Virus record (IMG/VR): IMGVR_UViG_2799112723_000003
Coordinates: 1,425-65,424 of that record
Length of the DNA stretch: 64,000 bases
Origin: a virus
Taxonomy: Duplodnaviria; Caudoviricetes
Strand: one strand, 5' to 3'
Notes under the pieces: model-generated
Told to the model about the DNA's origin: nothing
Seen by the model: only the letters and a program-made list of their open reading frames with translations
Databases searched by the model: none
Shown here: positions 2,631 through 60,082 of the stretch, one piece after another
How the letters are laid out: every line of letters begins with the position of its first letter
Position numbering within the stretch: the stretch's first letter is position 1
Program-made: the position numbers and the translations under genes

Positions 2631-3090
2631 CGCCTGTCTTCTTTTTAGCTGCATACTCAAACACGTCCACGGTCTTTGTCTCGCTGACGCTGGAGATGAC
2701 GTAGTCTATCATCGACCCGCCCATCGCCTCGTCGATGTTCCTCCTGGCACCCTCAAACGAGCCGGCTTGCACCAGGTAGTAGACATTTGTCCGCTTCTCC
2801 TTGTCGGTCTTCTCGTCAATAGTGATAAACTGGAGCTTGGCTTTGTACCATTTGTCGGCCATGTCTTCATCTGAGAAGAATATCTCCTTGAATACTGCCC
2901 GGTCAATCTCCCACACCTCAAACTCGCCGCTGATGTAGCTCGACATCTCTTCCATGATGCGTGCCTCAGCTTCCGTGAACGACAGGGCGTCCACCACGTA
3001 AATCTCTGTCACCATCTTCTGCAGTCCGTCTTCCATCGTCTTCTCGTAGCGAATCTTGCAGATAAACCAATTCGCTGTTCTTGATCTCAT
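2611..3090 (-). CDS. DUF4494-family protein
   Basis: WFICKIRYEKTMEDG..YVVDALSFTEAEARI signature typical of Bacteroidota. Confidence 0.8.
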   Translation of the reverse strand: MRSRTANWFICKIRYEKTMEDGLQKMVTEIYVVDALSFTEAEARIMEEMSSYISGEFEVWEIDRAVFKEIFFSDEDMADKWYKAKLQFITIDEKTDKEKRTNVYYLVQAGSFEGARRNIDEAMGGSMIDYVISSVSETKTVDVFEYAAKKKTGDGEKKD

Positions 3091-3121
3091 TGTTGTTAAA
3101 TTTTTAAAGGGTTTGTAAATA

Positions 3122-3553
3122 TTATTGCTTAGGCCAGCACTCAGAATTGAAGTTGGCCATCATGGCACACATTTTCATGGCAATATCGTCGCTGTACACT
3201 ATCCACCACTGACAGGGAGCGTCCTGGTCTTGCTTCCGAAGACTATTCAACAGGTCTCCTATGGTGTATATGAAATATCGCTGTTCTTTGGTCAGTTCGT
3301 TTGGGTTGACATAGTCTTCCAATTTTTCATCGACACAAAATGTAGCTCTCATATTCACACTATATCCGTCGCTGTTTTTTATAAGTACCAGGCCAAATAT
3401 ATATTTATTAGGATCTTTCTCTTCCAACAGTTGCACCAGATTGCCCACTGAGTTATTAATGACACCCAGCGTCTTCTCGTACTGCTCGCACTCTAACGGG
3501 TCATAAAACCTTCTTCCGTCTTTGGCCTTGTAAATGATAGTTTCTACTTCCAT
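3122..3553 (-). CDS. Hypothetical phage protein
   Basis: 143-aa ORF co-oriented with the operon. Confidence 0.6.
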   Translation of the reverse strand: MEVETIIYKAKDGRRFYDPLECEQYEKTLGVINNSVGNLVQLLEEKDPNKYIFGLVLIKNSDGYSVNMRATFCVDEKLEDYVNPNELTKEQRYFIYTIGDLLNSLRKQDQDAPCQWWIVYSDDIAMKMCAMMANFNSECWPKQ

Positions 3554-42794: not shown

Positions 42795-43000
42795 TCCAAA
42801 ACGTTACAGTATGTGGCAGAAATATCAATGCCATTGTTATCGAGACCGACCCGATTAGTGCTAAGGAGTATCGCCGCTCGCTCATCAATATCCTGAAGTG
42901 TGCGGTTCTTTGGGATGGAGACCTGGAGAAGGAAGATGTATGGAACATCCTTAACGTTATTCAGGAGACAGAAACCAAGGAGGAAGGAGGTGAGGTATGA
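42791..43000 (+). CDS. Small hypothetical protein
   Basis: MIQNVTVCG..KEEGGEV, coupled on both sides. Confidence 0.55.
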   Translation: MIQNVTVCGRNINAIVIETDPISAKEYRRSLINILKCAVLWDGDLEKEDVWNILNVIQETETKEEGGEV

Positions 43001-43356
43001 AGGACTTCATCAAGCACTTCCGCCTAGGACCACTGCACCTGTACGTCACCACAAGGCGGCTGAAGAATCCCGGACGCGGCGAGCGCCTGCGCCACAACGC
43101 CAAGCCTAAGATAGATATGCTGAAACGCTGCCGCTACCGCATGAATGGAGGATGCTGCGAGGTATGCGGACGGAAGTTCAAGAAAAAGCAGCTCGAAATG
43201 CACCACATCGAGTCCGTCAAGAACCACCCGGAACTCATAGCCAGGGACGGCAACCTCCTCATGGTGTGCCGTACATGCCACATGCAGCTTCACCAGAAGC
43301 CCAATGCGAACACACAACCTGTAGCCGAGAAAGGAGGTCCCAATGAAACGAAGTGA
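42997..43356 (+). CDS. HNH endonuclease
   Basis: CEVCG..LEMHHI..NLLMVCRTCHMQLH. Confidence 0.8.
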   Translation: MKDFIKHFRLGPLHLYVTTRRLKNPGRGERLRHNAKPKIDMLKRCRYRMNGGCCEVCGRKFKKKQLEMHHIESVKNHPELIARDGNLLMVCRTCHMQLHQKPNANTQPVAEKGGPNETK

Positions 43357-43442: not shown

Positions 43443-44078
43443 ATGGCTAAGATCAAGGATTTATCAAATTTGAGGTTTGGGAAACTTCAGGTTGTAGAAT
43501 TGTTACCAGAAAGGAAATTTGGTAATGCCGTTTGGTTGTGCAAATGTGATTGCGGGAATACTACAAAAGTTATTGGATCCCGTCTTATTCGTGGTAAAAC
43601 CCACATGTGCGATCAGTGTTTGAATAAGCAGCTGAAAAAAGTTGGTTCAAATATTGGTAACAGAAAGAGATTGCATGATGTTTTTCGTCGTATGAGAAAT
43701 AGATGTTATAATCCAAATTGTGATGTTTACAAACATTACGGAGGAAGAGGTATTAAAATTTGCGACGCCTGGTTAAATAACTTTGACGCCTTCTACGATT
43801 GGGCTGTAACGAATGGATATGATTATGGTCTATCTATTGAGCGCATTGATGTAAACGGAAACTATTGCCCCGAAAACTGCATTTGGATTCCTTTAAAGGA
43901 ACAAGTATATAACAGAAGGGATACTGTTTATGTTTGTTTTCGGAATCATAAAATTTCCCTTGCAAAAATATGTAATGATCTTGATATAGACTATATAAAA
44001 ATAGCCAGTTACATAAATAGAATATATAGGAGTAAAGATAACAATCAAAATCACAACGACAATGAACAACCCAGATAA
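43443..44078 (+). CDS. HNH/His-Me homing-endonuclease-like protein (AT-rich insert)
   Basis: RFGKL..WLCKCDCG, RCYNPN..YGGRGIKIC, SIERIDVNGNYCPENC.W. Confidence 0.8.
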   Translation: MAKIKDLSNLRFGKLQVVELLPERKFGNAVWLCKCDCGNTTKVIGSRLIRGKTHMCDQCLNKQLKKVGSNIGNRKRLHDVFRRMRNRCYNPNCDVYKHYGGRGIKICDAWLNNFDAFYDWAVTNGYDYGLSIERIDVNGNYCPENCIWIPLKEQVYNRRDTVYVCFRNHKISLAKICNDLDIDYIKIASYINRIYRSKDNNQNHNDNEQPR

Positions 44079-45469: not shown

Positions 45470-48400
45470 TCACTGCTTACTGTCAGGCTTCTTGTTAAGC
45501 TCCAGCCTCTCAATCATAGCCTTTCTTGCTGCACGGATACCTTCCATGACGTATTTGTCACCTTTGCCGCCAAAAAGGGACACTACGTTGCTGTGGACAC
45601 TCTTACGCTGATTGCTGATGGCTTTTGCTTGCTGCTCATTACCTTCTTCGTCTAACTTTTGCTGATAAGCCAATAGCAGCGCATCCTCATAGACATCTTC
45701 GCCCGTTCGCAACTCCTGGTAAAGCCTTTGATGGTCATTCTTCGGCTTGTCGCCATAGGGAGTCTCGCTGGCTCCTGCCTCCTTGGAGATACGCAGTGCT
45801 ATTGCCTTGCGCTTCTCCGCGTCTTCGGTGGCGTCAAATTTTCCAATGGCCAGCTCCAGCGGGTCTTTGCCGCTTTCAAGGGCTGCAATCTCGTCAAGAA
45901 GGTCATTCTTATACATTGATATGCTGGACTTGATATTGGCAAGCGTGTCTTTGTCGGTGGCTTCCTTCTGCTGCTTACGCAGGTTGTCTATCAGCTTCTT
46001 GTACTGGCTGATGACAAGACTTTGCTGATACTCGTCGGATGCCATCAGCTTCTCGAGCTTCTTCTGGGCCTCAGCATCTCCAGCCTTTGCACGCTTCTTC
46101 TTCTTCCTGACGGTATTCAGGAACTCTTCGTTGTCGTTAATCATCTGCCAGTAGTCCTCACCGAGTGCCCCGCTGTTGTCGCGCTCCCACGGGCTGTTGA
46201 CAAATCTGTTCAGGACAGGTATCTGATAGGCATTGGGGGCTTCCTGCCTGGCAACTGTCACGACAACGTCAGCCGACTTGGCAATGGTGTTGTACATACC
46301 GCCCAGATAGCCTTGCAGCAGATGGTTCCACACAGCAGGGTTGTTCAGGTATTGTCCTGCGGCGGTCTTGTCCAGCCATCCGCGACTGTCCTCGTCGCCG
46401 CCTGCAGCCAAGTTGATACCTTCTGACACCTTTGTCATCCATTTGGGAGTACTGGCGTATGCCTTGGTGAACATCGGGTCGTACTTGTTACCCATATTAT
46501 CCTTCCAGATAGGCTTGCCAGTAAAATCGGTGTTGAACGCCACCTGAAGGATGGGCTGTGTGGTGGTGGGCAGGAAGTTGATGACAAGGTTGCCACCGTT
46601 ACCCGTCGGGTTGATGGGAACAAGGTCGGCCACGCTCTCGAGTATTTCCACACCCGTATTCTGATGGGGATGCTCCATGACACCACTTGAAATCATCTCA
46701 CCGACACCATAGAAGACACGGAACTCCTGCGCCAGCGGCATGGTGAAGAAATACTTGGTGCCCGGCACCCAGAATACCAGGTTGTTCTTTCGTACCCAGG
46801 GGGGCAGGTTCCAGTAGGCATCCTTGTCGTCATCGTCACCAAACATATTCAGCAGCCATTGGTTTAAAACAGGCATAAACACACCCATCAGCATGAAGCC
46901 TGCGGCCACACCGCCAAGCTTCAGCGGATGCTTTTTTGCCATACGGTACATATTGGCAAGTGCCTGGATGGCGGGGTTTACGAAGATGTATAGGTCTCTC
47001 AGCTCAGCATTACCCTTTGCTCCCGTTCCCTTACGGTTGAAGTTCAAGGTCACGTCCTTGGCATCTGCAATGGATTCTTCCAATGTCTTACCCATCTGGC
47101 GGCTGGTCATATAAACCATGAAGCGGGTGGCATCCTCTGCACATCGGTTATAGAACTCAAAGGTCTCTCCCAACAGCCTGAACGCCTTGCCGATACTGGT
47201 CTCTTTCACCTTGGCTTTGCTGCCGAATAGTGTAGAGCCGTTCATCTGGCTTATTTCCTTCTGCATCTTCTCCTTGAAGGAGTCGATGGACAGCATGTTC
47301 ACAAAACCAGTCTCGCCGCCTTCGTCCATGAACTCCTTGAACAGTCGCTCAGTCTCATTGCCCGTGTCCAGTTTCCCTTGCTGCCATTTGCGCATCAGGC
47401 TGGGTATTAACCCTGTAGGTTGCTTCGATGCAGGCATCCAACGGCTGCTTTCGCCCAACCTTGGCGTCAACACCTTTGCAATGTTCTTCAGAAACCTTGC
47501 ATTATACGCTGCATTTTCGTTGACAGCCACACTGGCCATGGCCATGTTAAGGTCTCGGCTCAGGTTGGAAATGACAAATGCCGGGTTCTTGGAGGTAAAG
47601 AATGCTGCCATGCTGCGGTTGAGCTCGGCAATCCTTTTACCCCATGTTGTGTCGCTGATACGGCTGACGGCTCTTGCTGCACTGCCGTTCAATGCTTGTG
47701 CGGCCTTGGGATTGCCGTTGATGTACAACTGATAGGTGCGTCCGGCACGCTGCACCTCTACCACATGTTCTGCCTTTTGGCCCTGGGTGGCATTGACATC
47801 TAGTCTTAGCCGGCCTCTCACAGGGATGGCCTTGCCTTCGTTCTGCTTCAGGCGCATCTCTTCGTTGAAGTCACTCACTATCTGGGCTATCTCGTCAGGG
47901 TCTTTGCCTGCTGTGTCAGCAGAACGGAGCACCCATACGGGATGATCGTCTTCTGTACCGATGTTCTCATACCACGATTCACTGATGCTCACCAGACTGG
48001 TAGGATTGTTCATCACATAGTTCAGGAAGTGCTGCTTCATCATGTTACGGTGTCCTGACAGGATGGTACTCACGGCAATATTGCCTATATAGGCCAGCGG
48101 GTCTTCGGCCTTGGAGGTTCGGCCCCAGGTCTTCTTGACGGCTGGAGAAAAGACATTCTCCCTACCCATATAGGTGTAAACGTCTGATGCCTTGTTTTCA
48201 TCCCATCCTCTCAAAGGCAGATAGAAATCAAACATCTTACGTACCTTGTTATAGGTATTACGGTCCATCAGACCACTTTCGTAACTGTGCTTCAGCGTCT
48301 CTTCGGTGGCAGCATTGATACGCTTCCAAAGTTCTGTATGATGACGTAGCACGTCATCACTCTCTGCATCAAACACGCGTTTCTCGGCTTCTTCTCTCGC

Positions 48401-51400
48401 TTGCTCATACGCCTGCTTCATCATGGCATCGTATTCACCCCACAACTCGCGGCGTTCCTGCGGGTCAATAGTCCGCTGGGCTTCCTTCTTGATCTGCTGG
48501 GCGGCATCATACATTTCCTTGTTGAAGGTCTCTGTAAGTCCGGAATAGTCCTTCAGGTATTCATCGTACTTGCCGTCGGTCTCTCTTCTGATGATGTCTT
48601 CTATACGAGTCGTATACTCGTTGTAGCTGATGTCGCCCTTGGCATAGTCTTCTTTGGCTTGCAGATAGTCATCACTGCCTCGCACCTCCTGCATGCGGTC
48701 ATCGACACCGGTCTGCTCCAGCAGGTCTATATCGGCTTTCTTGGATTTATACTCTTTCTCGTCGATACGGTTCTTGGAGTAGTCTTTCTCCAGCTTCTCC
48801 CGCATATCCTTGATGTCTTCTGCCAGCTTGGACTTGACAGCATCACGGAAAGCATAGTACACGTTACGCTCCAGGCCGCTCTTGGCTATCAGGTAGTCCA
48901 TACCTTGCTCATGCGTCAGTTCTTTTGCCTTGCAGAAGTCGTTGAACGCTTTCAGCATGGGGCGGTAATACTGCCAGTCATAGCGTTCTGCCATATTCTT
49001 GGCACGTCCGTGCATACGGTTCTCGAAACGGTAGGCATCCTCTGCACCAGTGGCGGCATTGCCCGTCTCTTTGGCTATGGCATCCTGAATGGCTTTCAGA
49101 CTGGCCATAGAGTCCTGCCATGCTTCCTGCCATTTCAAGCTGCCCTGAGCCACGGCCTTCTCATAAATCTGCCTTGCCATATCCACCGGCACTTCCTCCG
49201 GCTCACCCATGGACTGCCCACGCCTGTACTCTTCAAGACGCTCCGCAAAGTCCATGGCATTCTCGCCAGGCTGGTAGTGCGGACGCTCTGGACTGCCAGT
49301 GCGCTGGAACCTGATATCAGGATTCTCAGGATTGTAGTCACCATTATTCTCAGTGGCACTCTTTACCTGGTTAGGCTCAAAAGCAATAATGGTTTCTGTG
49401 GTTCTGCCAAGACTGCCTTCATCCCTGGCTATCCATATACCATCGTATTCGCTGTTCTTGAAATAATCGTCAACCAGCTCCTTCATTTTGGCAATAGGCT
49501 TGCTCTGAGCCTCTTTCCACTGGTCAACTACATCTTCTGCAGTATCCGATATGGCATTCTGATACTCTTCTTCGGTAATCTCTCCGGCTTTCCACTTATT
49601 CCAGTTTTCGACATCGCGCTCATGGTCAAACTTCATGGCCTCATCGAATTTCTTGGAATATTCCCGGTCTATCTTCTCATACTCTGCAAGAGCCTCCTTG
49701 TATCCTTCAACCTTTGATTGCAGCAGACGGGACAGCTCCTGTCTGTTGGCAACTCTCAAAGGCTTGCGGATATTGGCATACAGGGCCATCTGCTTCGCAC
49801 CGCCAACACCTATGTCTCGCGCTGAAGGTTTCATGAAGATACCGAAAGGCAGCTGATAGTCATTGGTTCCTGCTCCTTTGTGTCTTGGGTCAAACACGGT
49901 AAAGTCGTTGGCTGTCTGGTGATAGACCACCATCGGCTCACCTTCCCTGTCAACTATCTTGGAAGCATTATCGGGATCCTTCTCCCAGTCACCGAAGAAA
50001 TTCTTGAAGTTATCGGAGTGTGTATCACCCTCAACTTTCTGGAATTTTAATGAATTATTCTCATTTTCTTTGCCATTAATGATTACCTGGTCCTCGCGGG
50101 GCACATCCTCGGTCTTTGCGGCTGGATTGTTACGACGCTCCTGCTCGCTCATACCCATACGCTCAGTAACGTTACGGGCCTCCATCTCACCTGCAAGACT
50201 CCGATAAAGGTCACTGGCATCACTCTTGGCAACAGTCTTCAGCTTATAGATGCGGTCTATCTGAGCTGTCAGGTTGTCGTACTTGGCTGCAAGTTCATCA
50301 AGACGATTATTAAGACTTTCTTTAAAGTCCTTAACGGTACGGCCCTCCAACTCGGCATAATCTTTCAACTCGTCTCCAGAGTTAAGTATCTTCTGGTTCA
50401 TCTCGATTTCCTTCATCACGCGCTTGCGCTCGGCCTCCTTCTTATTCATGATGGCCTCCATACCTGCCTCAGTGGTAGCTGTACTCAGGCTGCCACCCTG
50501 GGCAAAACCTTCCTTTTCCTGAATGACATGCTGCACCTCATGCAGCAAGATACCATAGACATTCTCGTTATCCAGCTTCTTGTCACCAAATCGACTGGTC
50601 TCGTTGGCATTCAGCTCAATGGTCTTACCATCGGTACTGCCAGCAATGCCACTCTCAACAGTCGGGTCGAACATCACCTGTACGTTCCTCATCTGGGGAT
50701 AATACTTAAACAGCTCGTTATCCTTACCAAGAAGTTCCTGAAGCTTCAGGATGGGCATAGGGTTCTCTACACCTTCATCTTTCATCTCCTGCAGCTTCTT
50801 CTCATAAGGCGTAAGCACGTCAACATCGGCATCAACGGTTTCGTATCGCCACTTGCCGTCCTTGCCGCGCTCCCAGCCTGTAGCCAATTTGATAGCACGG
50901 ATATCCTTCCCGGCTTTCTCCATCTCTTCAGCCACCTTCATATTGTCCTGGCGCATGGTAGTACCCTCTGCCTCATCAGCCTTCTCTGCACCCTTTCTGC
51001 CTACTAGCTGGTATTTGGGTGCATCGCCCAGTGGCTTGATACCTTCATCAAAGTAGCGGTCTATGTCAGCCAGTACGCGGTTGGGCTTAGCACCATCATA
51101 TTCTACATAGTGGTCGCTGTCCCAACCATCACCAAAGTCAACCTGTACATAACCGTCATTATGTGCTATAAGTTGTCGCAAGGCTTTCTTCTGCTCGTTG
51201 GTGGGCTTCACGGAAAGATTAATAGCTCCGGCATTGTCGTCAATACGGATAGCGCCTCGACGGATAAAGTCGGGCATATCTGTCTCAATGCCTGTCTTGG
51301 TATTGCCATCTCTTTCATAAGCAATGGATTCTACCTCTCTATGGTCTGTAGAGCGTCTGCCTCTTAGGAAACTAGTGTCAGAGCCCGGATTCATCAGATG

Positions 51401-54400
51401 ACGACCAGAGAAATCTGGCATACTGCCATCAGGCAATATATATCCCGCCTCCCTGATATCGTAGGTGGTGCCAAACAACTTCTTAGCAGCATTAAAGATG
51501 GTCTCTGTGCGCTGTTTCTCTTCGTCGCTGGTATAGTCCATCTTCTGACTCTTCAAGCCATCAGAAACTTTAGCATACTGACCCTGCAACGGGTCTATCC
51601 ATGCCACATCAGTCAGGGGAACTTCCTTTGAGTATACCTTACCACCGCCTGCATAGTTTGTTGCTTCCATCTTAGAGGGTGTAACAAAGGCACCATCCTT
51701 GATAGGCTTGCTACTATACACGGTGACAACACCCTTTTCCAGCGCATCTTTCACCATGTCAGCGGTAAAGTCAGGTGTAACACCTTCCTCAGCTGCATAG
51801 CCGTCTTCGTCAACAGCCTCACGGAATGTCTTGATATCGTTGATGGTCCGAATCCAAGTATGTCCTGGCATGTTCACATCATCGGCAGGGTTCTCTTTCA
51901 AGATAATGTCAAGCTGCTGCTGTTTAAGATGTTCTGCACGATTTACCTTTGCTTTCTTAACCTCTTCAACTGGGTTCACGCCATTGAGCATATCGGCCAT
52001 GATGCGGTCTGCAATCTGGTTGGCATTGCGGTACTTCCAGCCCATCATCTTGGCCACACCTTCCCAGAACTGGTTCAGGACGTTCTTCAGACGCTGCATG
52101 GCGGTCATGGCCTCAGCCTTGCCGAAGACGCCGCCACGCTCGGCTGCAACCTCGTTGGCAATCTCACGCAGACGCTCTGCACCGCGCTTGCCTGAGAACT
52201 GGGTGATAATCTCTTCAATGAAATCATCTTCCTTCCCTTCCTGGGTAAGCTCCGGGTAGTCGCGCTTCACCTTCTCGATGATAGGCTGCACCAGCTTGTC
52301 GCCCAGCATCACCTGCTTGATGTTGTTCCACTCTTCAGGAGCTGTCTGACGTTTCATCTCAACCCAAAGGTGACTGTATTCGTGTACAGGTGTCTCAGAG
52401 GTAGCGATACGCGGGTCAATGTATATCTTGCCCTTATAAGTGTAGCCGTAGGCATGCCCGTCAGGAGTCTTGAAGAACTTTCTTTCAGAATCTTTGGCGG
52501 TTTCGGAATTTTGTTGTACCTTTGCACCCGAAGAAGCATTCAAATCATTTGTCCGTGCGCCTTCGGGCGTGTCGCCGTTTGGCATCTGCGGGGTTTGATT
52601 TGATGCTTTATCAGAGGCATTGTTAGCATCTGCTTGTGCGCTTAATTGCGTGTTCGTATGACCATTGGCTTTGTCAATGAGACGAGCGGTAGAGTCTTCT
52701 ACTGTGAGACGAGCGGCTGACGATGCTTTTCTGTTTGTATAGAAATCAACCTGCTCCGAAAGATTTTCGTCTTTCTTGACATCACTTCCCAAAATATTTC
52801 GTACCTTTGCATCTGAAAGAACTGCTCCCAGGTCTTCACGACTAAACGTAGGGTTGGCTTGCGTAGCGTCGGAGTGAGTACTAACCTCGCCGTCAGCACC
52901 AGTTTTTTCATCTTTTTTCCAACCGTTAAACAGCCAAGTTTCTTTTTCACCAAACCTTGTAAGAGCAAGCAGTGCTTCATACTCGCCGTCAGTCAGGACT
53001 ACGGTTTTGTTACCTGGCACATAGCGGTCAATCTTTCCGTCAGCAATGACGTTCAACACTCTTAGAAGCGTGTCGGCACCATGCTTGCCGCCAATATGGG
53101 CAATGCCATAGCCGCCCTTGTAATTTTCCTCAGGATTGCCAGTCTTACCATAGTAGAAAGTGATGTTGTTGTCGCCTCCATACTGGGAAAGGTCATCACG
53201 GGTCATAGCATTTGGCACACTTTCCTCTCCATCAGCAATCCTCTGAAGGGCATCCATACCGTTCTCAATGTTCTTCCTGACGGCCATCTGCTTCAGATCA
53301 TGCGAACCATTGTAATCATCCAGCACTTTCTGGCCTTCCTCCCAGTCCGTGGACACATCTATCCCGGCCTCCTTCATCTTCTCGACTACGGCATCCCTCA
53401 GCACCGTCTCACGCCTGCTTGCGGCATAAACTCTGCCACTGACTTTGTGATCGTCGGTGTTGTTGCTATTCTTTCCATTGTCCAGCCTCGTCTTAGCCTG
53501 CTCTTCAGTGTTTTGCAATTCAGATTGAGTTCCCTCGCCCAATCTGCCGTTTTCATCGTTCTGCCCTGATATGTCACCATTCTGGAGTTGGCCTTGATCC
53601 CGTCCGGAGTTTCCAGCGTTCTCTCCACGCTCCAATGGTAAGTCAGGATTCTGGATTTTATTCTTTTCAGCGGGAGCCCCGTTTCCTCTGCCCACTGCCG
53701 CATTGACATCGTTCTGCCCTTGTATGTCAGATAATGTGCCGTCCTTCGGTTCTGAGACTGGGTTATCCAATCTGTCCACCTGCAATTCTCCTTGCAGTAG
53801 CCCTTGTTTACGTCGATTCTGTCCAGAGTCGCCTTGGGGTATGGACGCCTGCCCATATCCTCCAGAAACCTCGGGAAGCTCTCTATCCATTCCTGACAGA
53901 CGGTTATCCCCCGTCCCCCGTAGTACTTGTACCTCTTGTTGTTCGGGTTCAGGCATCTTCCCTTCATCTGCAACCATAGTTGATACTCCGGGATATATCT
54001 TAGCCCATGCTCCGTCCTCTTTATACGTCCCATTCTGTTTTCCATTTTTCAGCCAGTCTTTAAATGATTCCATATCTGTTTCTATCAGCGAATCCATGCC
54101 GTTCCATCCTTCCTCATAGTTAGAAAGATAGGCATTGGATGCCTGAGATGCATTCTCAAATCCCAGAAGCACTTTCAGCTCGTCAAATTTCCAGACTCCA
54201 TTGACTTTTTTCCGTTGCTGTACTATAAAAACCTTGTCCGGATGAGTGGGATCGTCTGACAGGAACACATCTATATGGTCCTTGTCGGCTCCCTCCGTAC
54301 CCCTGATATACCCGTAGGTATTGTGCATTTCGGTTTCCCATGGCTTGCCACTAGCATCAGTACCGCGACGGATACTGCCCTTCGGATTCTCGATAGTAAT

Positions 54401-57400
54401 GTCAAGACCGTCAATCTTGATATGTCCTTTCTGATAGTTGCCTGCTTCCTTCTGACCCTCGCTGGGATTGGTATCTACCTGTGCTTCCTCGGAAGAAATT
54501 TCTTCGGCTGATGAAGTTTTTCCAAGATTTTCTTGGTTATTTGAAATATTTTCCGTACCTTTGCTTTCGAAAGAAGCGTTATTCTCTTGCGTAGGAAGGA
54601 GGTCCGGCACAGCATCTTGCTGTTCAGCTAAGTGCCCGTCAGAGCTGTTGGAGAGTAGCGCTTGTTTCGTGTATATACTTTCCAACGTTGTTAATCTCTC
54701 CAGCACTTTTGCAGGTTTCATTATATGGCTGCTTACAGATACCTCCATGTTGTCACGCTGAACGGTAACAGAAGCATAGTATTTCATCTTCTGTCCGTCT
54801 CTGACAAATGTCTTGACAAACACATAAGAGTATGGACGTTCCGTTACCTGGCCTTCCTTAGCCTGACTTGGTTCTACCAGAACAATGTCGGGGTCTTGTA
54901 ACGTTTGTACGGCCATGCCAAACTCAGCAGAACGATTCTTATCAAAGAATTTCTTATACTGGCCATCGCCCATCTTAACAACACCTAATGGCGTGTCAAG
55001 AGAGTTGTTGAGTCCAAACGTATTAGCCCAAGTTTCAGGCGTCAAGCTAATTTGTGGGTCTTCAACTGCTGCATCTTCCATCCTCTTCATAAACGCCTGA
55101 GCTTCGTCGTTAGAAAGTGCTTTTGCCCTGGCATTAGCCTCAGCAACACCAATCTCAGGCGACTCCACACGTACAGCATCACGCATATCTGTCGGCTTCA
55201 GCTGCTCGGACTGCTTGATGCCGGTCTTGATGTACTCAGGGTCTACGTCATTATCCAGGTATCTGTCCCAGAAGGTACGGATGATATACTGGTCTGCCAG
55301 CTTTTCAGGGTCGTTACCGTTGTAGTCCTCGGCAATATCAAACATTTCCGTCTTGTCTTCACCTGCGTCCAGTCCTTCATCTACATACTGCTGAACGGCC
55401 TGCGCTGCGGCTGTGATGGTTGCAGGGTCGCCACTCTTGTAGGCATCAATCAATGCCTGACGGTTGGCTTCATAACGAGGTTTGTCAATCTTTGGCGTAG
55501 GTATGGCACCCTCAAAGGGTTCTTCACTCTCTATACCATACTTGACATTCAGACCCTCGACATACTCCTCGATGGGCACAAAGACGGCGTTAGCCTGTTC
55601 CTGTGCATCGTCAATGGCTTTCTGTGCCGCTTCACGGGTTTCCTTGTTCTTACTCTTCAGGGCATCTTTGTTCCTCTCGATGACCTGGCCGTATTCATCG
55701 TTGGCGATTTCCCAGTCTTCTACCAATGCTGTCAGCTGTTCCACGTCATAGTCGCTCATGCGCTCGGCAAGTACCGGGCTGGCACCAATCTGGTCAAAGA
55801 GTATGGCTAAGGATTCTCTGTCGCGTACTGTTCCAGATACATCGTCATCAGAAACAGTCGGTTGATTAGACGCTGCTTCTTCTCCTTGGGCCAGCCCTTC
55901 CTCAATATTTCTGCCACCTTCGGCTTCAGCTGCTGTTTGTACTTGGCTCTGGCTTCCTTCAATGCCTGCTGGTACTGCTCCACTGACAGGCTCTTCACCC
56001 ACTGCTGGGCTTGTTCGATTCTGTTCATTGTCTGCTATAATTTGATTGATTACTTCCTGCTCAACGAGTGTGGGAGGCTCCTGCATGTAGGCTTCAAAGG
56101 CCTCACGCTCTTCCGGGGTCAGGTGATAGGCTTCTGCCCATGCGTCCATTTCTGTCTCTTCTGCACGACGCTGGTTTTCTTCCTTCATCTGGCGGGCTTC
56201 CTCGATACGGTGCTCTTCTGTCAGATGGAGCATACGTGTGCTGCTGCCCTCATTGAACAAATCCAACAGGGTATTGCGCACGTCTTCGTCCGTGTACATA
56301 TCCTTCATGCCCTGGGGAAGTCCTTCGTGTATGTCGAGTACTACCTGGCCAAAAGGCTTGGCACCGCTTTCCTTGGTTCCTAACAGGGTCATCATACGCT
56401 GCATGTCGCTGCGCTTCAGGCCCAGCTCGGTCTGCAAACCTCGTTCGCTGTCGCTGGCATCTTGCCAGAGCATAGAGTGAGGACGTAGGAGTGAAGACAC
56501 ATATTCGTCCAGACTACGTGGCTCAATATCTTCCAGGACTGACAGGGCTTCTGCATCGTCGGCCATCTCCCTACGTGCCTGCACTAAGGGATCGTATTGT
56601 TTGTTACGGCGTTCCTTATCCTTTTCTATCTGCTCACGGAGTCGTTTGCGGTCTTGCTCTTCCTGCTGCTCTTTCAGCTTACGGGCTTCCTCGGCTTCAC
56701 GCTGACGCTGCTCTTCGCTCTTGGCGGCTTCAATAGCGGCCTGGCGTTCTGCGGCTTCGGCCTGCATCCTGCGCTGTATGTACTGGTTGACGTCCTGCCA
56801 TTGCTTGATGATAGCCTGTTGTTCTTGTTCCTGCTGCTTGATGGCCTGGCGACTCTCGGCAATCTCTATCGGGTCTTCACCCTTGGGCTTCTGCTTACGA
56901 ATCTTCTCCAGCTTACCACGGGCAACATTCACCAGATCGCTGGCTGTGTCTCGGGCTGTCAGCATGTCACCGCCAGCGGTTTCTATCAGTGCTGAGGCTG
57001 CATCTTCCACGGTGGCCTTGTGCCATTCCAACACTGGTTTGCCATTCTTGCCCTTCACCGGCTGGCCACTGGCATCTGTCTTGACAGGAATACGTGACAA
57101 AGCGGAGGCAGGCTGCTCGTTTGCTCCAGTACCGCTTTCGGCACTTGCCTCGCCACCTGCTGTTTCTCCGCCTTGCTCTGGTTGAGGTTGTGGTTGTATC
57201 TGGTTGTTCTTGGTCGGAACTGATTCTGTTCTCATTTGTTCCAACTGCTGATTTTCAATGGTTTCCGTGTCAGGCTGCATTGATGCACGCTGCACCTCCA
57301 TACCATTATGGGCCACAATACGACGGTTCATGTCGTCGGCTGTCATCTGGAGTGCCCTGCCGTCATTGGTCTGTATCACAAACACACCGTCTACGGCATT

Positions 57401-60082
57401 AGGCAGCTGCACGACCTGACCTTCTATGATACCTCCGTTACCATCATTCAGCGTAACAGTGTCTTCCATGTCAAACACTTCATTGGCTGGACTGCCAAAG
57501 TTGATGTCGTCGTCGGCCTGCTGCGTCAGCTGCTGCCTCAACACGGTTTCATTCTGCTGAATCAGTTCGTCAACGGGTGTCATTTCATAAACCATGACGT
57601 TTGCAGGTGATTGTACACTGACTTCTCCCGTAATCGGGTCTTTCAGCAATACTGCGCCGCCTGTTCCTACCAAAGCGCTATCAGGTGTGATCTCGCCGCC
57701 TATGACGTAATAGTCCCGGTCACCCATCTTGGCCATGACAAGATTGCCACTTTCCTGATGGGCATTACCTCTTATCTGGGCATTGGCCTGCTCTACCTGC
57801 ATGTCAACGTTGTCAAGTGCTGCATCCATCACGCCATTGGCCGCTGCTTGCTTCTGGAAGTAGTCAGCTGCTGCCGCTATCTGCTCGTCGGTATACAGGT
57901 CACGGTTCTGCATCAGGTAGTTCATGGTTTGTACAGGTTCCTCTTGACCATCCATCACCATTTTTGAAAACTCTTCACCAAATGATGACAGCATTTCGCC
58001 TGATGCCTGCGCATCGTCGACAATCATCTTCATATCATCTGGCTCCTGGGCATTGTAGCCTTGACCGTAACTTTGGTCTATAGATTGTGATACAATGGCT
58101 TCTTCGCTCATGCTTGACTGTTCGTCCTTTGCATCTGCCATCATACCCATGTTGTAGCCTCGCATCTTCAAAAGATCACCTGCATAGTTCAATGCGGCGG
58201 TCTTCTCGGTGGAGTTCATGTCGCCTGTAGCTATGCTGGCAATCATGTCGCCCATCTGCTCGTTGTCGCAATCGTCTATCTGCTGTTTGACGCTTGCCCA
58301 ATTGTCTTCACCAAAAACGATAGAAGCATTGGTGTCTGCCATGTCAACCGTTTTCTTTGCCTGGTAATAGTTGATGGCACTCTTACCCGTATAAGCTAGA
58401 CGTGGTGCCTGCATCAAACCAATAGAGAATAGCATACCTCCCCATATATCAGCTTGTGTCTTCGCGTTGAACACTCCTTTTTCGCCGGTACTGAAATCAT
58501 TGTCGCCTACCAGAAGAGCATTGAGTACCAAGTTTGCCTGCTCTTCCACAACTTCGGAAGGATAGTCCTGAATACCTCCGCTCTCCAGCCACTTACTGCT
58601 GGAAAGATAGTTAACGGCCTTGCTCAGCTTGCTAAGGCCCATCTTCTCGGCACCTTTGGCTATCCACTTACCAAGCTGCAAGTGCTCGCCCAGCTTCTCC
58701 GTATAATATTCTAAAGTATTTGCTACTTCTGCCTCATAGATGCTTCGTCCCAGGCTCTTGCCACCTCTGGTAAAGTTTCCTTCTTCATCGTAGGAACCAA
58801 AGTCGTATTGACCTTCGGGATTGATGGTAACTTCGCCCATGTTACGCTGCATGATGTCACTGGCTGTACGGAAAGCTCCTGTAGTATTGGCCATGGCCCA
58901 CCCGGCAGCAACATCACCGGCTAAAACGCCAAGGTTCTTGACAAACATCTTTGACAGTCCGTCCAATGCCAATTTTTCTGCTGCCTTCGCTCCGTACTTG
59001 GCACCGGCTTCTGACAGTGCGGAGAAACCTCCTGTGGTCATGAACTCTGCTACAAAAGGTAGTGCCTGCATCGAAATGCCACCGGCACGATACATAAAGC
59101 CTCGGTTTTCACCGTACTTTTGTTGGGCATCATTATTGAGAAAGGTACTTTCTATCAGCTTTTGTTCTGCAGATGACAGTTCTGGCTCCTGACCGGCATC
59201 ATGAGCCTGGTCTATCTTCTGCTTTACACGCATCAGCTGTACCGTGTCGTTGAAGTCCGTCAAACCAAACGTTTGCACAGATGGATTCATTGCGGCATCT
59301 ACAAATCCTCTCCAGAACTGTGTACCGCCATCGTCATCACGCTCTGCCTCTAGTGCTGTGATACGCTGCTGGTTCTGCCTGAGTGCTGCTTCCAGTGCTG
59401 CTACACTTTCGTCATCACCTCTATTACCATAATGTACTCGCCCGTCTTGATCGACCCACTGACCTTGGTGCTGGGCCAGCTCTGCGTTAAGCCTGTCACG
59501 CTCTGCATAGGCATCATCCAACTGCCCAGGAAGACTTTTTCGGTAGCGCTCGTCGCGCATATCCTGGTCTATCTGACGTTGTTCTTGGTCAGCAATTGTT
59601 TTGTTTTGATATTCATTACCGGCTGAGGTGATATAGCTTTGTTCCAATTCGCCTGTTTCGGGGTTCAGATGCTGTTCACCTTCTACAAGATTGTTGCTCT
59701 CGCCCAAGGTGACACGTTGTGGGGCACGCAATCCCTGGCGTTTCTGCAAATTGCTGGCCCTACGGTCATAAGCGGCTGTTGCTCCTTGTCCTGCCTGCGT
59801 TGCCTGACCAATAGTCTGCTGAAAACCTGCCATTTCACGGGCTGTTGGTTTGTAAGTTGATGGTTCTGGCTGTCTCGCCGTAAACAAAGTATCTCTGAAA
59901 TCGTCGTAATTGTCAGGAACATCGTAATTATTGTCTCTTAGCGACTTCCACAACTGAAAACGATTCTGATAGCCTTCGTCACCTTTGGCTGTCAGTGTTC
60001 TTTCAAAAGAATTATAGTCCTCTGGAACATCATAGTTATTGTCCAACAAGGACTTGTGCAGAGTCTGTAAAGGATTTCCCAT
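45470..60082 (-). CDS. 4870-aa large polyvalent (injected) protein
   Basis: By eye: PBECR-type nuclease (~54620-55080), inorganic pyrophosphatase-like domain (GNYQKGH..HIDVF, ~54045-54460), second PBECR-like domain (GIAHI, ~52880-53270), two HExxH zincins (~52370, ~50530), LPD23-like GWERGKDGKWRYE, ART-like PMVVYH (~49920), LPD38-like C-terminus. Confidence 0.85.
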   Translation of the reverse strand: MGNPLQTLHKSLLDNNYDVPEDYNSFERTLTAKGDEGYQNRFQLWKSLRDNNYDVPDNYDDFRDTLFTARQPEPSTYKPTAREMAGFQQTIGQATQAGQGATAAYDRRASNLQKRQGLRAPQRVTLGESNNLVEGEQHLNPETGELEQSYITSAGNEYQNKTIADQEQRQIDQDMRDERYRKSLPGQLDDAYAERDRLNAELAQHQGQWVDQDGRVHYGNRGDDESVAALEAALRQNQQRITALEAERDDDGGTQFWRGFVDAAMNPSVQTFGLTDFNDTVQLMRVKQKIDQAHDAGQEPELSSAEQKLIESTFLNNDAQQKYGENRGFMYRAGGISMQALPFVAEFMTTGGFSALSEAGAKYGAKAAEKLALDGLSKMFVKNLGVLAGDVAAGWAMANTTGAFRTASDIMQRNMGEVTINPEGQYDFGSYDEEGNFTRGGKSLGRSIYEAEVANTLEYYTEKLGEHLQLGKWIAKGAEKMGLSKLSKAVNYLSSSKWLESGGIQDYPSEVVEEQANLVLNALLVGDNDFSTGEKGVFNAKTQADIWGGMLFSIGLMQAPRLAYTGKSAINYYQAKKTVDMADTNASIVFGEDNWASVKQQIDDCDNEQMGDMIASIATGDMNSTEKTAALNYAGDLLKMRGYNMGMMADAKDEQSSMSEEAIVSQSIDQSYGQGYNAQEPDDMKMIVDDAQASGEMLSSFGEEFSKMVMDGQEEPVQTMNYLMQNRDLYTDEQIAAAADYFQKQAAANGVMDAALDNVDMQVEQANAQIRGNAHQESGNLVMAKMGDRDYYVIGGEITPDSALVGTGGAVLLKDPITGEVSVQSPANVMVYEMTPVDELIQQNETVLRQQLTQQADDDINFGSPANEVFDMEDTVTLNDGNGGIIEGQVVQLPNAVDGVFVIQTNDGRALQMTADDMNRRIVAHNGMEVQRASMQPDTETIENQQLEQMRTESVPTKNNQIQPQPQPEQGGETAGGEASAESGTGANEQPASALSRIPVKTDASGQPVKGKNGKPVLEWHKATVEDAASALIETAGGDMLTARDTASDLVNVARGKLEKIRKQKPKGEDPIEIAESRQAIKQQEQEQQAIIKQWQDVNQYIQRRMQAEAAERQAAIEAAKSEEQRQREAEEARKLKEQQEEQDRKRLREQIEKDKERRNKQYDPLVQARREMADDAEALSVLEDIEPRSLDEYVSSLLRPHSMLWQDASDSERGLQTELGLKRSDMQRMMTLLGTKESGAKPFGQVVLDIHEGLPQGMKDMYTDEDVRNTLLDLFNEGSSTRMLHLTEEHRIEEARQMKEENQRRAEETEMDAWAEAYHLTPEEREAFEAYMQEPPTLVEQEVINQIIADNEQNRTSPAVGEEPVSGAVPAGIEGSQSQVQTAAEAEGGRNIEEGLAQGEEAASNQPTVSDDDVSGTVRDRESLAILFDQIGASPVLAERMSDYDVEQLTALVEDWEIANDEYGQVIERNKDALKSKNKETREAAQKAIDDAQEQANAVFVPIEEYVEGLNVKYGIESEEPFEGAIPTPKIDKPRYEANRQALIDAYKSGDPATITAAAQAVQQYVDEGLDAGEDKTEMFDIAEDYNGNDPEKLADQYIIRTFWDRYLDNDVDPEYIKTGIKQSEQLKPTDMRDAVRVESPEIGVAEANARAKALSNDEAQAFMKRMEDAAVEDPQISLTPETWANTFGLNNSLDTPLGVVKMGDGQYKKFFDKNRSAEFGMAVQTLQDPDIVLVEPSQAKEGQVTERPYSYVFVKTFVRDGQKMKYYASVTVQRDNMEVSVSSHIMKPAKVLERLTTLESIYTKQALLSNSSDGHLAEQQDAVPDLLPTQENNASFESKGTENISNNQENLGKTSSAEEISSEEAQVDTNPSEGQKEAGNYQKGHIKIDGLDITIENPKGSIRRGTDASGKPWETEMHNTYGYIRGTEGADKDHIDVFLSDDPTHPDKVFIVQQRKKVNGVWKFDELKVLLGFENASQASNAYLSNYEEGWNGMDSLIETDMESFKDWLKNGKQNGTYKEDGAWAKIYPGVSTMVADEGKMPEPEQQEVQVLRGTGDNRLSGMDRELPEVSGGYGQASIPQGDSGQNRRKQGLLQGELQVDRLDNPVSEPKDGTLSDIQGQNDVNAAVGRGNGAPAEKNKIQNPDLPLERGENAGNSGRDQGQLQNGDISGQNDENGRLGEGTQSELQNTEEQAKTRLDNGKNSNNTDDHKVSGRVYAASRRETVLRDAVVEKMKEAGIDVSTDWEEGQKVLDDYNGSHDLKQMAVRKNIENGMDALQRIADGEESVPNAMTRDDLSQYGGDNNITFYYGKTGNPEENYKGGYGIAHIGGKHGADTLLRVLNVIADGKIDRYVPGNKTVVLTDGEYEALLALTRFGEKETWLFNGWKKDEKTGADGEVSTHSDATQANPTFSREDLGAVLSDAKVRNILGSDVKKDENLSEQVDFYTNRKASSAARLTVEDSTARLIDKANGHTNTQLSAQADANNASDKASNQTPQMPNGDTPEGARTNDLNASSGAKVQQNSETAKDSERKFFKTPDGHAYGYTYKGKIYIDPRIATSETPVHEYSHLWVEMKRQTAPEEWNNIKQVMLGDKLVQPIIEKVKRDYPELTQEGKEDDFIEEIITQFSGKRGAERLREIANEVAAERGGVFGKAEAMTAMQRLKNVLNQFWEGVAKMMGWKYRNANQIADRIMADMLNGVNPVEEVKKAKVNRAEHLKQQQLDIILKENPADDVNMPGHTWIRTINDIKTFREAVDEDGYAAEEGVTPDFTADMVKDALEKGVVTVYSSKPIKDGAFVTPSKMEATNYAGGGKVYSKEVPLTDVAWIDPLQGQYAKVSDGLKSQKMDYTSDEEKQRTETIFNAAKKLFGTTYDIREAGYILPDGSMPDFSGRHLMNPGSDTSFLRGRRSTDHREVESIAYERDGNTKTGIETDMPDFIRRGAIRIDDNAGAINLSVKPTNEQKKALRQLIAHNDGYVQVDFGDGWDSDHYVEYDGAKPNRVLADIDRYFDEGIKPLGDAPKYQLVGRKGAEKADEAEGTTMRQDNMKVAEEMEKAGKDIRAIKLATGWERGKDGKWRYETVDADVDVLTPYEKKLQEMKDEGVENPMPILKLQELLGKDNELFKYYPQMRNVQVMFDPTVESGIAGSTDGKTIELNANETSRFGDKKLDNENVYGILLHEVQHVIQEKEGFAQGGSLSTATTEAGMEAIMNKKEAERKRVMKEIEMNQKILNSGDELKDYAELEGRTVKDFKESLNNRLDELAAKYDNLTAQIDRIYKLKTVAKSDASDLYRSLAGEMEARNVTERMGMSEQERRNNPAAKTEDVPREDQVIINGKENENNSLKFQKVEGDTHSDNFKNFFGDWEKDPDNASKIVDREGEPMVVYHQTANDFTVFDPRHKGAGTNDYQLPFGIFMKPSARDIGVGGAKQMALYANIRKPLRVANRQELSRLLQSKVEGYKEALAEYEKIDREYSKKFDEAMKFDHERDVENWNKWKAGEITEEEYQNAISDTAEDVVDQWKEAQSKPIAKMKELVDDYFKNSEYDGIWIARDEGSLGRTTETIIAFEPNQVKSATENNGDYNPENPDIRFQRTGSPERPHYQPGENAMDFAERLEEYRRGQSMGEPEEVPVDMARQIYEKAVAQGSLKWQEAWQDSMASLKAIQDAIAKETGNAATGAEDAYRFENRMHGRAKNMAERYDWQYYRPMLKAFNDFCKAKELTHEQGMDYLIAKSGLERNVYYAFRDAVKSKLAEDIKDMREKLEKDYSKNRIDEKEYKSKKADIDLLEQTGVDDRMQEVRGSDDYLQAKEDYAKGDISYNEYTTRIEDIIRRETDGKYDEYLKDYSGLTETFNKEMYDAAQQIKKEAQRTIDPQERRELWGEYDAMMKQAYEQAREEAEKRVFDAESDDVLRHHTELWKRINAATEETLKHSYESGLMDRNTYNKVRKMFDFYLPLRGWDENKASDVYTYMGRENVFSPAVKKTWGRTSKAEDPLAYIGNIAVSTILSGHRNMMKQHFLNYVMNNPTSLVSISESWYENIGTEDDHPVWVLRSADTAGKDPDEIAQIVSDFNEEMRLKQNEGKAIPVRGRLRLDVNATQGQKAEHVVEVQRAGRTYQLYINGNPKAAQALNGSAARAVSRISDTTWGKRIAELNRSMAAFFTSKNPAFVISNLSRDLNMAMASVAVNENAAYNARFLKNIAKVLTPRLGESSRWMPASKQPTGLIPSLMRKWQQGKLDTGNETERLFKEFMDEGGETGFVNMLSIDSFKEKMQKEISQMNGSTLFGSKAKVKETSIGKAFRLLGETFEFYNRCAEDATRFMVYMTSRQMGKTLEESIADAKDVTLNFNRKGTGAKGNAELRDLYIFVNPAIQALANMYRMAKKHPLKLGGVAAGFMLMGVFMPVLNQWLLNMFGDDDDKDAYWNLPPWVRKNNLVFWVPGTKYFFTMPLAQEFRVFYGVGEMISSGVMEHPHQNTGVEILESVADLVPINPTGNGGNLVINFLPTTTQPILQVAFNTDFTGKPIWKDNMGNKYDPMFTKAYASTPKWMTKVSEGINLAAGGDEDSRGWLDKTAAGQYLNNPAVWNHLLQGYLGGMYNTIAKSADVVVTVARQEAPNAYQIPVLNRFVNSPWERDNSGALGEDYWQMINDNEEFLNTVRKKKKRAKAGDAEAQKKLEKLMASDEYQQSLVISQYKKLIDNLRKQQKEATDKDTLANIKSSISMYKNDLLDEIAALESGKDPLELAIGKFDATEDAEKRKAIALRISKEAGASETPYGDKPKNDHQRLYQELRTGEDVYEDALLLAYQQKLDEEGNEQQAKAISNQRKSVHSNVVSLFGGKGDKYVMEGIRAARKAMIERLELNKKPDSKQ
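53398..54045 (-). CDS. HNH homing-endonuclease gene nested in the +1 frame of the giant ORF
   Basis: EYQLWLQMKGRCLNPNNKRYKYYGGRGITVCQEW..TLDRIDVNKGYCKENCRW..Q.NRR plus two (K/Q)GRTM..WA.E DNA-binding repeats; the host frame stays open. Confidence 0.85.
   Translation of the reverse strand: MENRMGRIKRTEHGLRYIPEYQLWLQMKGRCLNPNNKRYKYYGGRGITVCQEWIESFPRFLEDMGRRPYPKATLDRIDVNKGYCKENCRWTDWITQSQNRRTAHYLTYKGRTMSMRQWAEETGLPLKRIKSRILTYHWSVERTLETPDGIKANSRMVTYQGRTMKTADWARELNLNCKTLKSRLRRGWTMERIATTPTITKSVAEFMPQAGVRRC
55807..56028 (-). CDS. 73-aa helical protein nested in the +1 frame of the giant ORF
   Basis: MNRIEQAQQWVKSLSVEQYQQALKEARAKYKQQ.. is protein-like, while the host frame reads as linker; ATG lies in AAT-GAA with A-rich context. 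Confidence 0.55.
   Translation of the reverse strand: MNRIEQAQQWVKSLSVEQYQQALKEARAKYKQQLKPKVAEILRKGWPKEKKQRLINRLFLMTMYLEQYATENP

Follow-up and report, generated by a model that had tools for sequence, protein, structure and literature searches.

How can a complete endonuclease gene lie inside an unbroken gene of a phage and leave that gene unbroken? This question is raised by a 64,000-nucleotide stretch of a Caudoviricetes genome (hereafter the window; positions 1,425 to 65,424 of IMG/VR record IMGVR_UViG_2799112723_000003), the source record being a 65-kb provirus. A giant open reading frame (ORF), 45470..60082 (-), encodes a phage polyvalent (DarB-like) protein of 4870 aa with no internal stop codon, as seen in both the ORF list and the translation. 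A second ORF of 215 aa, 53398..54045 (-), begins at nucleotide 6037 of the giant ORF and lies inside it on the same strand at an offset of +1. We find that the host frame is not open across this nested, HNH-type gene by chance but through stop purging under selection, and that purifying selection at the amino-acid level acts over the insert on the HNH frame only and not on the host frame.

Over the 648 nucleotides of the nested ORF, stop codons are absent from the host frame, the HNH frame has a single one at its own end, and 19 occur in the third frame; the nested ORF is also the longest stop-free run in the two alternative frames of the giant gene (216 codons, the next being 97). Its ATG sits in the host codons AAT-GGA, directly past the last residue of an inorganic pyrophosphatase-like (InPase) domain (aa 1876-2012; 54047..54457 (-)), which matches Pfam PF18823 (E 2.8e-52, profile positions 2-135 of 135) and whose last codon abuts the insert. 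The start context, CTGAAAAATGG (54041..54052 (-)), reads stop (TGA), AAA, ATG in the HNH frame, with the TGA three bases upstream of the ATG, and L-K-N-G in the host frame. Past the nested gene, from about HKVSG...LRDAVVEKMKEAG onwards, many other polyvalent proteins contain a module homologous to the host sequence. The initial annotation, made from the letters alone, had described a complete same-strand ORF at +1, a host frame open for about 650 nt, a start codon at the end of a pyrophosphatase-like domain and domain-like host sequence resuming past the HNH gene, and all of these observations hold. An assembly or frameshift artefact was rejected because the layout is common to six independent assemblies.

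Stop purging and frame-specific selection

At this offset, a host-frame stop would require an HNH codon ending in T in front of a codon that starts with AA, AG or GA. The earlier count of 45 K/N/E/D codons, none of them preceded by T, proved exact (K15+N10+E14+D6); the 24 AGN codons likewise never follow a T-ending codon, so that the risk sites total 69. T precedes the risk codon at 0/69 of these sites, compared with 22/146 other sites (Fisher p = 1.6e-4). When the HNH protein was recoded with the codon usage of the giant gene, 12.5 +/- 3 host-frame stops were obtained, and zero stops occurred in 0/5000 trials; synonymous shuffles of the ORF's own (already biased) codons gave a probability of zero stops of 0.001-0.009. 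The dual-frame codon constraint that had been anticipated is thus present, with 0 stops against 12.5 expected and no T at any risk site. Four-fold sites before risk codons also vary less than those elsewhere (11/25 versus 26/30, p = 0.001). Because NNT and NNC are synonymous in all sixteen codon boxes of the standard code, every host-frame stop at a +1 offset can be removed silently. At the other offset, no silent change would be available where Met precedes a codon starting with A, which would explain why all independent lineages are at +1.

As a control, we used 146 distinct homologous ORFs from viral, metagenomic and genomic contigs, retrieved in HNH scans of IMG/VR, GTDB genomes and JGI metagenomes and all at most 60% identical. 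The frame equivalent to the host frame is the stop-richest of these homologues, with a median of 20 stops. The distribution of stops is bimodal: three ORFs have 0 stops and the next lowest has 3, and all three zero-stop ORFs are embedded at +1 in long ORFs. Elsewhere in the window, a free-standing relative of the nested gene (43443-44078 (+)) carries 26 stops in the frame corresponding to the open host frame, and 42% of its codons end in T (T3).

The avoidance of T extends beyond the risk sites. T-ending codons make up 10% of the nested ORF versus 25% of the rest of the giant gene, and T3 is also low at harmless sites (22/146 versus 24.9%, p = 0.005). Among the non-intein hidden genes described below, T3 is 7-13% versus 18-38% in their hosts, the exception being the GC-rich locus L047, with 6% in both. 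Since host codons that start with T encode F, L, S, Y, C and W, depletion of T3 leaves the read-through poor in hydrophobic and aromatic residues. In the window, the read-through (aa 2013-2230; 53393..54046 (-)) is rich in G, D, N, Q and E, contains a single W and lacks F and C; from its composition and substitution pattern, it is presumed to be a disordered linker. Across all 13 hidden cases, hydrophobic residues account for 18% of the read-through and aromatic residues or Cys for 2%, compared with 30% and 12%, respectively, in GC-matched controls (p < 1e-6 for both), and the hydrophobic and aromatic content of the read-through lies far below that of the same frame in free-standing homologues. 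The two hidden genes that lie in intein-like inserts are much less purged (T3 19%, aromatic 10-11%); with n=2, this contrast between retained and intein-borne read-throughs is a lead, not a result. An AlphaFold2 (AF2) model of the InPase domain, the linker and the next module had a mean predicted local distance difference test (pLDDT) score of 33 throughout (five-sequence alignment), so that it is unusable as evidence of disorder; in this same low-confidence model the linker has no secondary structure.

Five related giant genes (L083-L087) were compared with the window as DNA. Each carries an intact HNH ORF of 201-205 codons at +1 and at the same junction, with 0 host-frame and 18-19 third-frame stops. 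The identity of their HNH proteins to that of the window is 85-93% for the complete ORF and 90-96% for the 198 codons that they share; for the host-frame translation of these codons it is only 73-86%, equal to that of the non-coding third frame. Variable columns in the insert number 19/23/92 at HNH codon positions 1/2/3, and those in the adjacent InPase region follow the host frame (37/21/103). Over the insert, the median ratio of nonsynonymous to synonymous substitution rates (dN/dS) came to 0.08 when codons were read in the HNH frame and to 1.33 when they were read in the host frame; in the InPase flank it was 0.05. The amino-acid sequence conserved by selection over the insert is therefore that of the HNH protein and not that of the host frame.

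Recurrence of the hidden gene and insert-free architecture

More distant polyvalent-protein genes have the same arrangement. In L117 (HNH 58% identical, GC 44%), L198 and L201 (both 50%, GC 42-43%) and L047 (GC 66%), the HNH ORF starts at the end of the InPase domain at +1 and the host frame is open. Taken together with L083-L087, L117, L198 and L201 have 0 host-frame and 16-19 third-frame stops. The AAAATGG start context and its position are kept in L083-L087, L117, L198 and L201; in the last three, a stop or near-stop is followed by an A-rich run and then ATGG. L047 has the same junction and frame, 6 third-frame stops and a different start context with no A-run. Overall, the host frame is open in 10/10 polyvalent-protein loci compared as DNA and in four hosts of other types, two of them SNF2-type proteins and two intein-like, at GC contents of 42-66%, and every hidden case has the +1 offset. 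Homologous inserts thus keep the host frame open, a point that the initial annotation had proposed to check, with 0 stops in every embedded locus compared.

A search of 1.84 billion representative proteins with the host-frame linker returned 11 clusters, and 12 proteins, close relatives included, have the read-through sequence immediately after the InPase domain. The host region gave no match when used for a pattern search of IMG/VR. In a 2435-aa polyvalent protein (P0130), a linker-like stretch at aa 502-696 lies just upstream of the InPase domain (727-858) instead of downstream; this presumed hidden HNH gene would be a second insertion site.

Hidden HNH genes also occur in hosts of other types. 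A 2216-aa SNF2-domain protein (L199:301-6951) contains a hidden +1 HNH gene (941-1546, 40% identical) inside its split SNF2 domain, with 0 host-frame and 14 third-frame stops and a read-through rich in G, E, Q, R and D in which no intein motifs were seen by eye. A 762-aa SNF2 helicase (L067:1689-3977) carries between its two lobes an insert with a 208-aa +1 HNH gene (2815-3441) and 0 host-frame stops; intein-like blocks were seen by eye in its host frame (TYNHEVLT ... TYDLLNCGP...VVHNC), and Pfam found no intein. Likewise, the P45 DNA polymerase of APSE-4 (L202; EU794056.1, 1349-2017) has an intein-like insert (CLAKGT..., MTADHQVLT, ...VYDLINCGPRNRF...LIVHNC) with a 222-codon stretch open in the HNH frame, at +1 to the annotated coding sequence (CDS), whose own frame is also open. 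APSE-4 P45 provides an example of the out-of-frame habit of this HNH family in a cultured system.

The limits of the insert were defined from the six close loci (the window and L083-L087), which align ungapped over a conserved core at 88-94% nucleotide identity. This core extends from the ATG to about codon 198 (...GWTMERIATTPT; 53452..54045 (-)). Past about codon 198, the HNH tails and the host sequences of the relatives diverge, and the HNH tail and stop come from whatever sequence lies downstream of the core; different downstream modules follow the insert in L086 and P0008. The window ORF is 10 codons longer than those of the five close relatives, whose TGA reads TTT in the window (host N to Y), and the extended ORF stops at a TGA inside the next host module (53398-53430 (-)). 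In one of the relatives (L087:1-3001), gene calling splits the giant gene into two ORFs, of 2017+ aa and 2829 aa; the break falls within the InPase domain, upstream of the hidden HNH gene, and could be a real disruption or an assembly error.

The initial annotation had proposed a search for empty sites with contiguous flanks. Insert-free polyvalent proteins were indeed found, in which ...FK.W[VI][QE] is followed by SSHRKTKPF.EY and a short linker. P0030/L200 has the InPase domain, SSHRKTKPF plus a linker (38 aa native) and then the LRDA module as in the window, and tblastn detected no HNH gene in it. The downstream flank, HKRIVSDDQMEELRKKLLEKF, is nearly the same in P0008 (filled) as in P0016 (empty), and P0016 has 34 native residues in place of the insert. 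The search therefore recovered an insert-free architecture with the same flanking modules but no closely related allele, the InPase domains of the empty ones being at most 68% identical.

Identity of the nested protein, mechanism and alternatives

The nested ORF matches phrog_3377 "HNH endonuclease" over its full length (PHROGs, E 1.5e-63), and tblastn placed relatives of it in 952 phage records, where the labels are HNH, homing endonuclease or AP2; among them are genes labelled as free-standing homing endonucleases, and some of the matches fall within the annotation of a gene such as DNA polymerase. An AF2 model of the nested protein (19 homologues, pLDDT 84.8) has a ββα core (strands 73-76 and 88-91, helix 93-98) followed by two repeats, each a β-hairpin plus three helices. 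The best fold match among 48,161 Protein Data Bank (PDB) chains is the HNH restriction enzyme PacI (3m7k; Z 6.5, root-mean-square deviation 3.1 Å, 79 aa), and the C-terminal repeats weakly resemble the helix-turn-helix (HTH) modules of I-TevI and I-HmuI (Z about 3). Foldseek of the model against the PDB gave no match at E <= 0.001, and a sequence-profile search of the PDB with the nested HNH protein gave nothing significant. Y83, N87 and N99 are invariant in 19 HNH-family sequences, and Tyr83 lies in the loop between the two strands. In PacI-type His-Me fingers, a loop Tyr replaces the catalytic His (PMC5714182); compared with the PacI-like class (group 20, Jablonska et al. 2017), the nested protein has the inter-strand Tyr and conserved Asn residues and is without the canonical His. 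By resemblance, the nested gene thus encodes a PacI-like HNH (His-Me finger) protein with two C-terminal HTH repeats, a putative nuclease. The HNH identity given in the initial annotation stands on the PHROGs match and the predicted fold, with Pfam giving none.

A 'dUTPase' label over a Staphylococcus phage match was rejected as a mislabelled in-frame HNH gene. Another relative (P0136, 363 aa) has three tandem N-terminal HNH cores (...YGGRGIT...LDRI.N...NVRW...), an unusual repeat architecture for the family.

We propose that a homing-endonuclease gene of about 600 bp was placed inside the inter-domain linker that follows the InPase domain, on the same strand and at +1, and that T-ending HNH codons at risk sites were removed silently, which would open the host frame and leave the endonuclease unchanged. 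Ribosomes on the giant ORF would then read through the element without RNA or protein splicing, adding a hydrophilic and probably disordered linker of about 200 residues that a modular polyvalent protein can presumably tolerate. The endonuclease itself would most likely be made by internal initiation at the conserved AAAATGG on the same mRNA; translation starts in Bacteroidota are typically A-rich and lack a Shine-Dalgarno sequence. The element would persist most likely by cutting insert-free InPase-coding alleles and being copied into them together with a flanking InPase segment. Translation of both frames, nuclease activity and homing are what we infer from these data. We give a probability of roughly 0.78 to a splicing-free insert of this kind, with the host frame kept open and the host protein gaining a linker, most likely as a selfish homing element. 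This is essentially the proposal of the initial annotation, and its core is supported by the open frames, by selection on the HNH frame only and by the lack of intron or intein signals; its claim to be a further strategy is not, because the layout was published in 2025 (PMC11855218).

Several observations hint at mobility. The HNH gene, set in a mosaic neighbourhood, is the best-conserved segment of the close loci (88-94% at the nucleotide level), the InPase flank being 74-96% identical and the downstream flank 60-76% where homologous, and a breakpoint lies directly after the HNH gene in the comparison of the window with L083. A 3.8-kb contig (P0134, ENA ERZ27257202) encodes a 194-aa HNH protein that is 84% identical to the hidden one, with N- and C-termini of its own. 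Its gene was called separately, in a neighbourhood of small genes, and overlaps the preceding one by 4 nt at its start. Apparently, this is a free-standing copy from the hidden HNH lineage. Recent horizontal spread had been considered from NG86 dS values (HNH about 0.5 versus InPase flank at least 1.5) and was dropped, since the two are similar at four-fold sites once stop-risk sites are left out.

Other results weigh against this proposal. On the InPase tree, the HNH-bearing domains need only 2 state changes, and the divergence of the HNH gene at four-fold sites is like that of the flank once constrained sites are removed; a long vertical history of an InPase plus HNH cassette therefore fits these data as well as active homing does. 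No insert-free allele with more than 70% InPase identity was found, and the insert replaces about 12-34 native linker residues rather than lying cleanly between two codons. In none of the six close loci do the 400 nt upstream contain the Bacteroides -7 promoter motif TAnnTTTG. The PacI match, at Z 6.5, falls short of the value of about 8 that is recommended for confidence, no Pfam HNH family matches the nested ORF and no invariant His was found in the family alignment, where the position reads D-R-I-D with an invariant Arg76; the assignment of nuclease activity therefore rests on the analogy with PacI and on database annotation. With these points taken into account, putative active homing is the reading that we favour.

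The alternative with the most in its favour, which we nevertheless consider unlikely, is that the nested gene, having lost or never had a selfish homing function, is a domesticated nuclease or DNA-binding protein, inherited vertically as an InPase cassette and of benefit to the phage, for instance in attacking the DNA of a host or competitor or in regulation. It would account for the grouping of HNH-bearing InPase domains into few deep clades or one basal grade, with only 2 changes required by the tree, for the similar identities of HNH (50-58%) and InPase (50-55%) between distant lineages, for the absence of the canonical catalytic His and for purifying selection that is strong and long-lasting (dN/dS 0.08), where a homing cycle predicts decay. 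However, free-standing homing endonucleases are among the annotations of relatives, and part of the matches coincide with genes such as that for DNA polymerase; the family also has members in intein-like inserts, where the niche is purely selfish; the 84%-identical copy is found on its own in a different context; and the HNH gene lies at a mosaic breakpoint at which the window and L083 are 94-96% identical on one side and 69% on the other. The clustering of InPase domains would also be produced by co-conversion of the flank during homing.

Two further alternatives concern expression. A +1 ribosomal slip on the A-run (CUG AAA AAU G) would yield a truncated polyvalent protein with the HNH protein as its C-terminal domain. 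The host codons CTG-AAA-AAT are present in the window and in four of the five close relatives, with AAA-AAT also in L086 and L198, and a Lys-tRNA shifted by +1 would re-pair perfectly with AAA and enter the HNH frame just past the upstream stop. Yet the slippery codon is not conserved (GAA in L117, CAA in L201), whereas the ATG and its A-rich context are; the family alignment begins at the nested ATG, the free-standing copy has its own start and L047 lacks the A-run, and we regard such a slip as very improbable. Least credible of all, to the point of being nearly negligible, is removal of the segment by an unrecognised intron or an atypical intein, with the open host frame being incidental, even though homing endonucleases usually live in introns or inteins and members of this HNH family lie out of frame in the intein-like inserts of the L067 helicase and APSE-4 P45. 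Rfam gave nothing at E <= 1 in 52000-55500 and nothing at the gathering score in 9 related loci, and as the conserved insert consists of little more than the HNH ORF, a ribozyme would not fit into it. In the host frame at about 53390-54050, we detected no Pfam Hint domain, no N-terminal Cys/Ser, no TxxH and no C-terminal His-Asn followed by Cys/Ser/Thr. Moreover, removal at the RNA level would give no reason to purge about 12 expected stops per lineage or the hydrophobic residues, so that the purging itself speaks against RNA splicing.

Relation to known systems and the host gene

Phage homing endonucleases are known as free-standing or gene-splitting elements, such as mobE in the nrd genes of T-even phages. 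Like these elements, the nested gene is an intronless endonuclease gene within or beside a conserved target, for which flank co-conversion is expected; mobE-type elements, however, lie between genes or split the host gene into two ORFs, whereas the host ORF described here is single. Out-of-frame endonucleases in inteins have been known for longer still, according to bioRxiv 10.64898/2026.09.14.751524, which cites Gorbalenya 1998. They share with the present case an overlapping-frame gene under purifying selection within a freely evolving host frame, and they include members of the HNH family itself in the L067 SNF2 helicase and the APSE-4 P45 polymerase. They differ in that their read-through is excised; no intein was found here, and the read-through must therefore stay in the protein. 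T-ending codons and aromatic residues are also much more depleted here than in the two intein-like cases.

The closest precedent is the ShiLan domain, an insertion in the DNA methylase genes of mycobacteriophages in which an HNH gene is hidden out of frame (Arsenault, Gosselin & Gogarten 2025, Genes 16:178, PMC11855218). In both systems, an insert within a phage ORF adds no host-frame stop and is nearly filled by a complete HNH ORF on the same strand in another frame, with no intron or intein signature, and the read-through is predicted to form a tolerated loop or linker. The host of ShiLan is a methylase, whereas here it is a polyvalent protein invaded at the InPase boundary, in Bacteroides/Prevotella-type phages of 42-51% GC, in which an open second frame is unexpected by chance. 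By architecture, ShiLan has a central HNH with zinc fingers, compared with a His-less PacI-like core and two HTH repeats here, and it uses a 'third frame' with GTG rather than +1 with ATG. The same study (section 3.6) describes an insertion with a hidden 160-aa ORF in the Pacc40 gp60 helicase-methylase. This, too, combines a hidden DNA-binding or HNH-like ORF with a disordered in-frame read-through, at a second, unrelated host position, and a similar gene is free-standing beside an uninvaded homologue; it differs in coming from a single phage, with an HNH assignment that its authors consider uncertain, whereas here 10 loci share one site and the assignment is stronger. PMC11855218 makes no mention of GC content and describes no stop-count comparison with free-standing homologues, and neither it nor bioRxiv 10.64898/2026.09.14.751524 mentions polyvalent proteins or Bacteroides-type phages.

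The principle of a hidden out-of-frame HNH gene is therefore not new, having first been described in 2025 (PMC11855218); new here are the host protein, the recurrent site at the InPase boundary, the constant +1 frame and the statistical evidence of stop purging. This extends the hidden-HNH lifestyle beyond the methylases of GC-rich actinophages to gut phages of the Bacteroides/Prevotella type, where, at 42-51% GC, an open second frame must be actively maintained. Such maintenance is supported quantitatively by the expected versus observed stops, the bimodal control distribution and the frame-specific dN/dS, and it follows a simple rule, that a +1 offset permits the silent removal of all host-frame stops. 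A broader and still tentative idea, to which we give slightly less than even odds, is that a PacI-like HNH lineage has become specialised for the +1 frame, with stops silently purged, T-ending codons generally avoided and a harmless, aromatic-poor disordered linker as a by-product, which would amount to genuine adaptation to two frames, and that it needs no splicing machinery to colonise SNF2 proteins, inteins and the linkers of polyvalent proteins, in the last case at the InPase boundary either repeatedly or persistently. If so, many 'low-complexity linkers' of giant phage proteins would be unannotated genes. Gene callers miss hidden HNH genes, and the linkers of giant anti-defence proteins can conceal them. 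A testable contrast is that retained read-throughs would be purged of aromatic residues and intein-borne ones would not, and the conserved InPase junction is a candidate target site for biochemistry.

The assignment of the host gene is based on the ORF list, Pfam domains and weak DNA matches. Pfam places InPase, LPD23, ART-PolyVal and LPD38 in the 4870-aa protein, which, as described for polyvalent proteins (Iyer et al. 2017), is the product of a giant multi-domain ORF with polyvalent-protein-associated domains; more than 1200 homologues were found, with shuffled domain sets. The few DNA matches of the record are to Bacteroides phages, one weak match lying over a 'DarB-like antirestriction' gene, and the named protein relatives of the host gene are from Prevotella. 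The module that follows the insert (52763..53392 (-)) starts at ...RETVLRDAVVEKMKEAGIDVSTDWEEGQKVLD and matches P0009, P0015, P0021, P0028, P0030 and others by BLASTP; it also occurs in other polyvalent proteins that lack the insert.

The free-standing relative in the window (43443-44078 (+)) encodes 211 aa, is 34% identical to the hidden HNH protein and has a Cys-rich N-terminal extension. Its GC content is 34% versus 49% for the window, and its neighbours are a small classic HNH ORF on one side and a pRha/ANT-like gene on the other. The former, a 119-aa ORF directly upstream (42997-43356 (+)), has a canonical HNH motif (HHIESV...CRTCH), and together with the hidden gene these two bring the number of HNH-type genes in this one genome to three.

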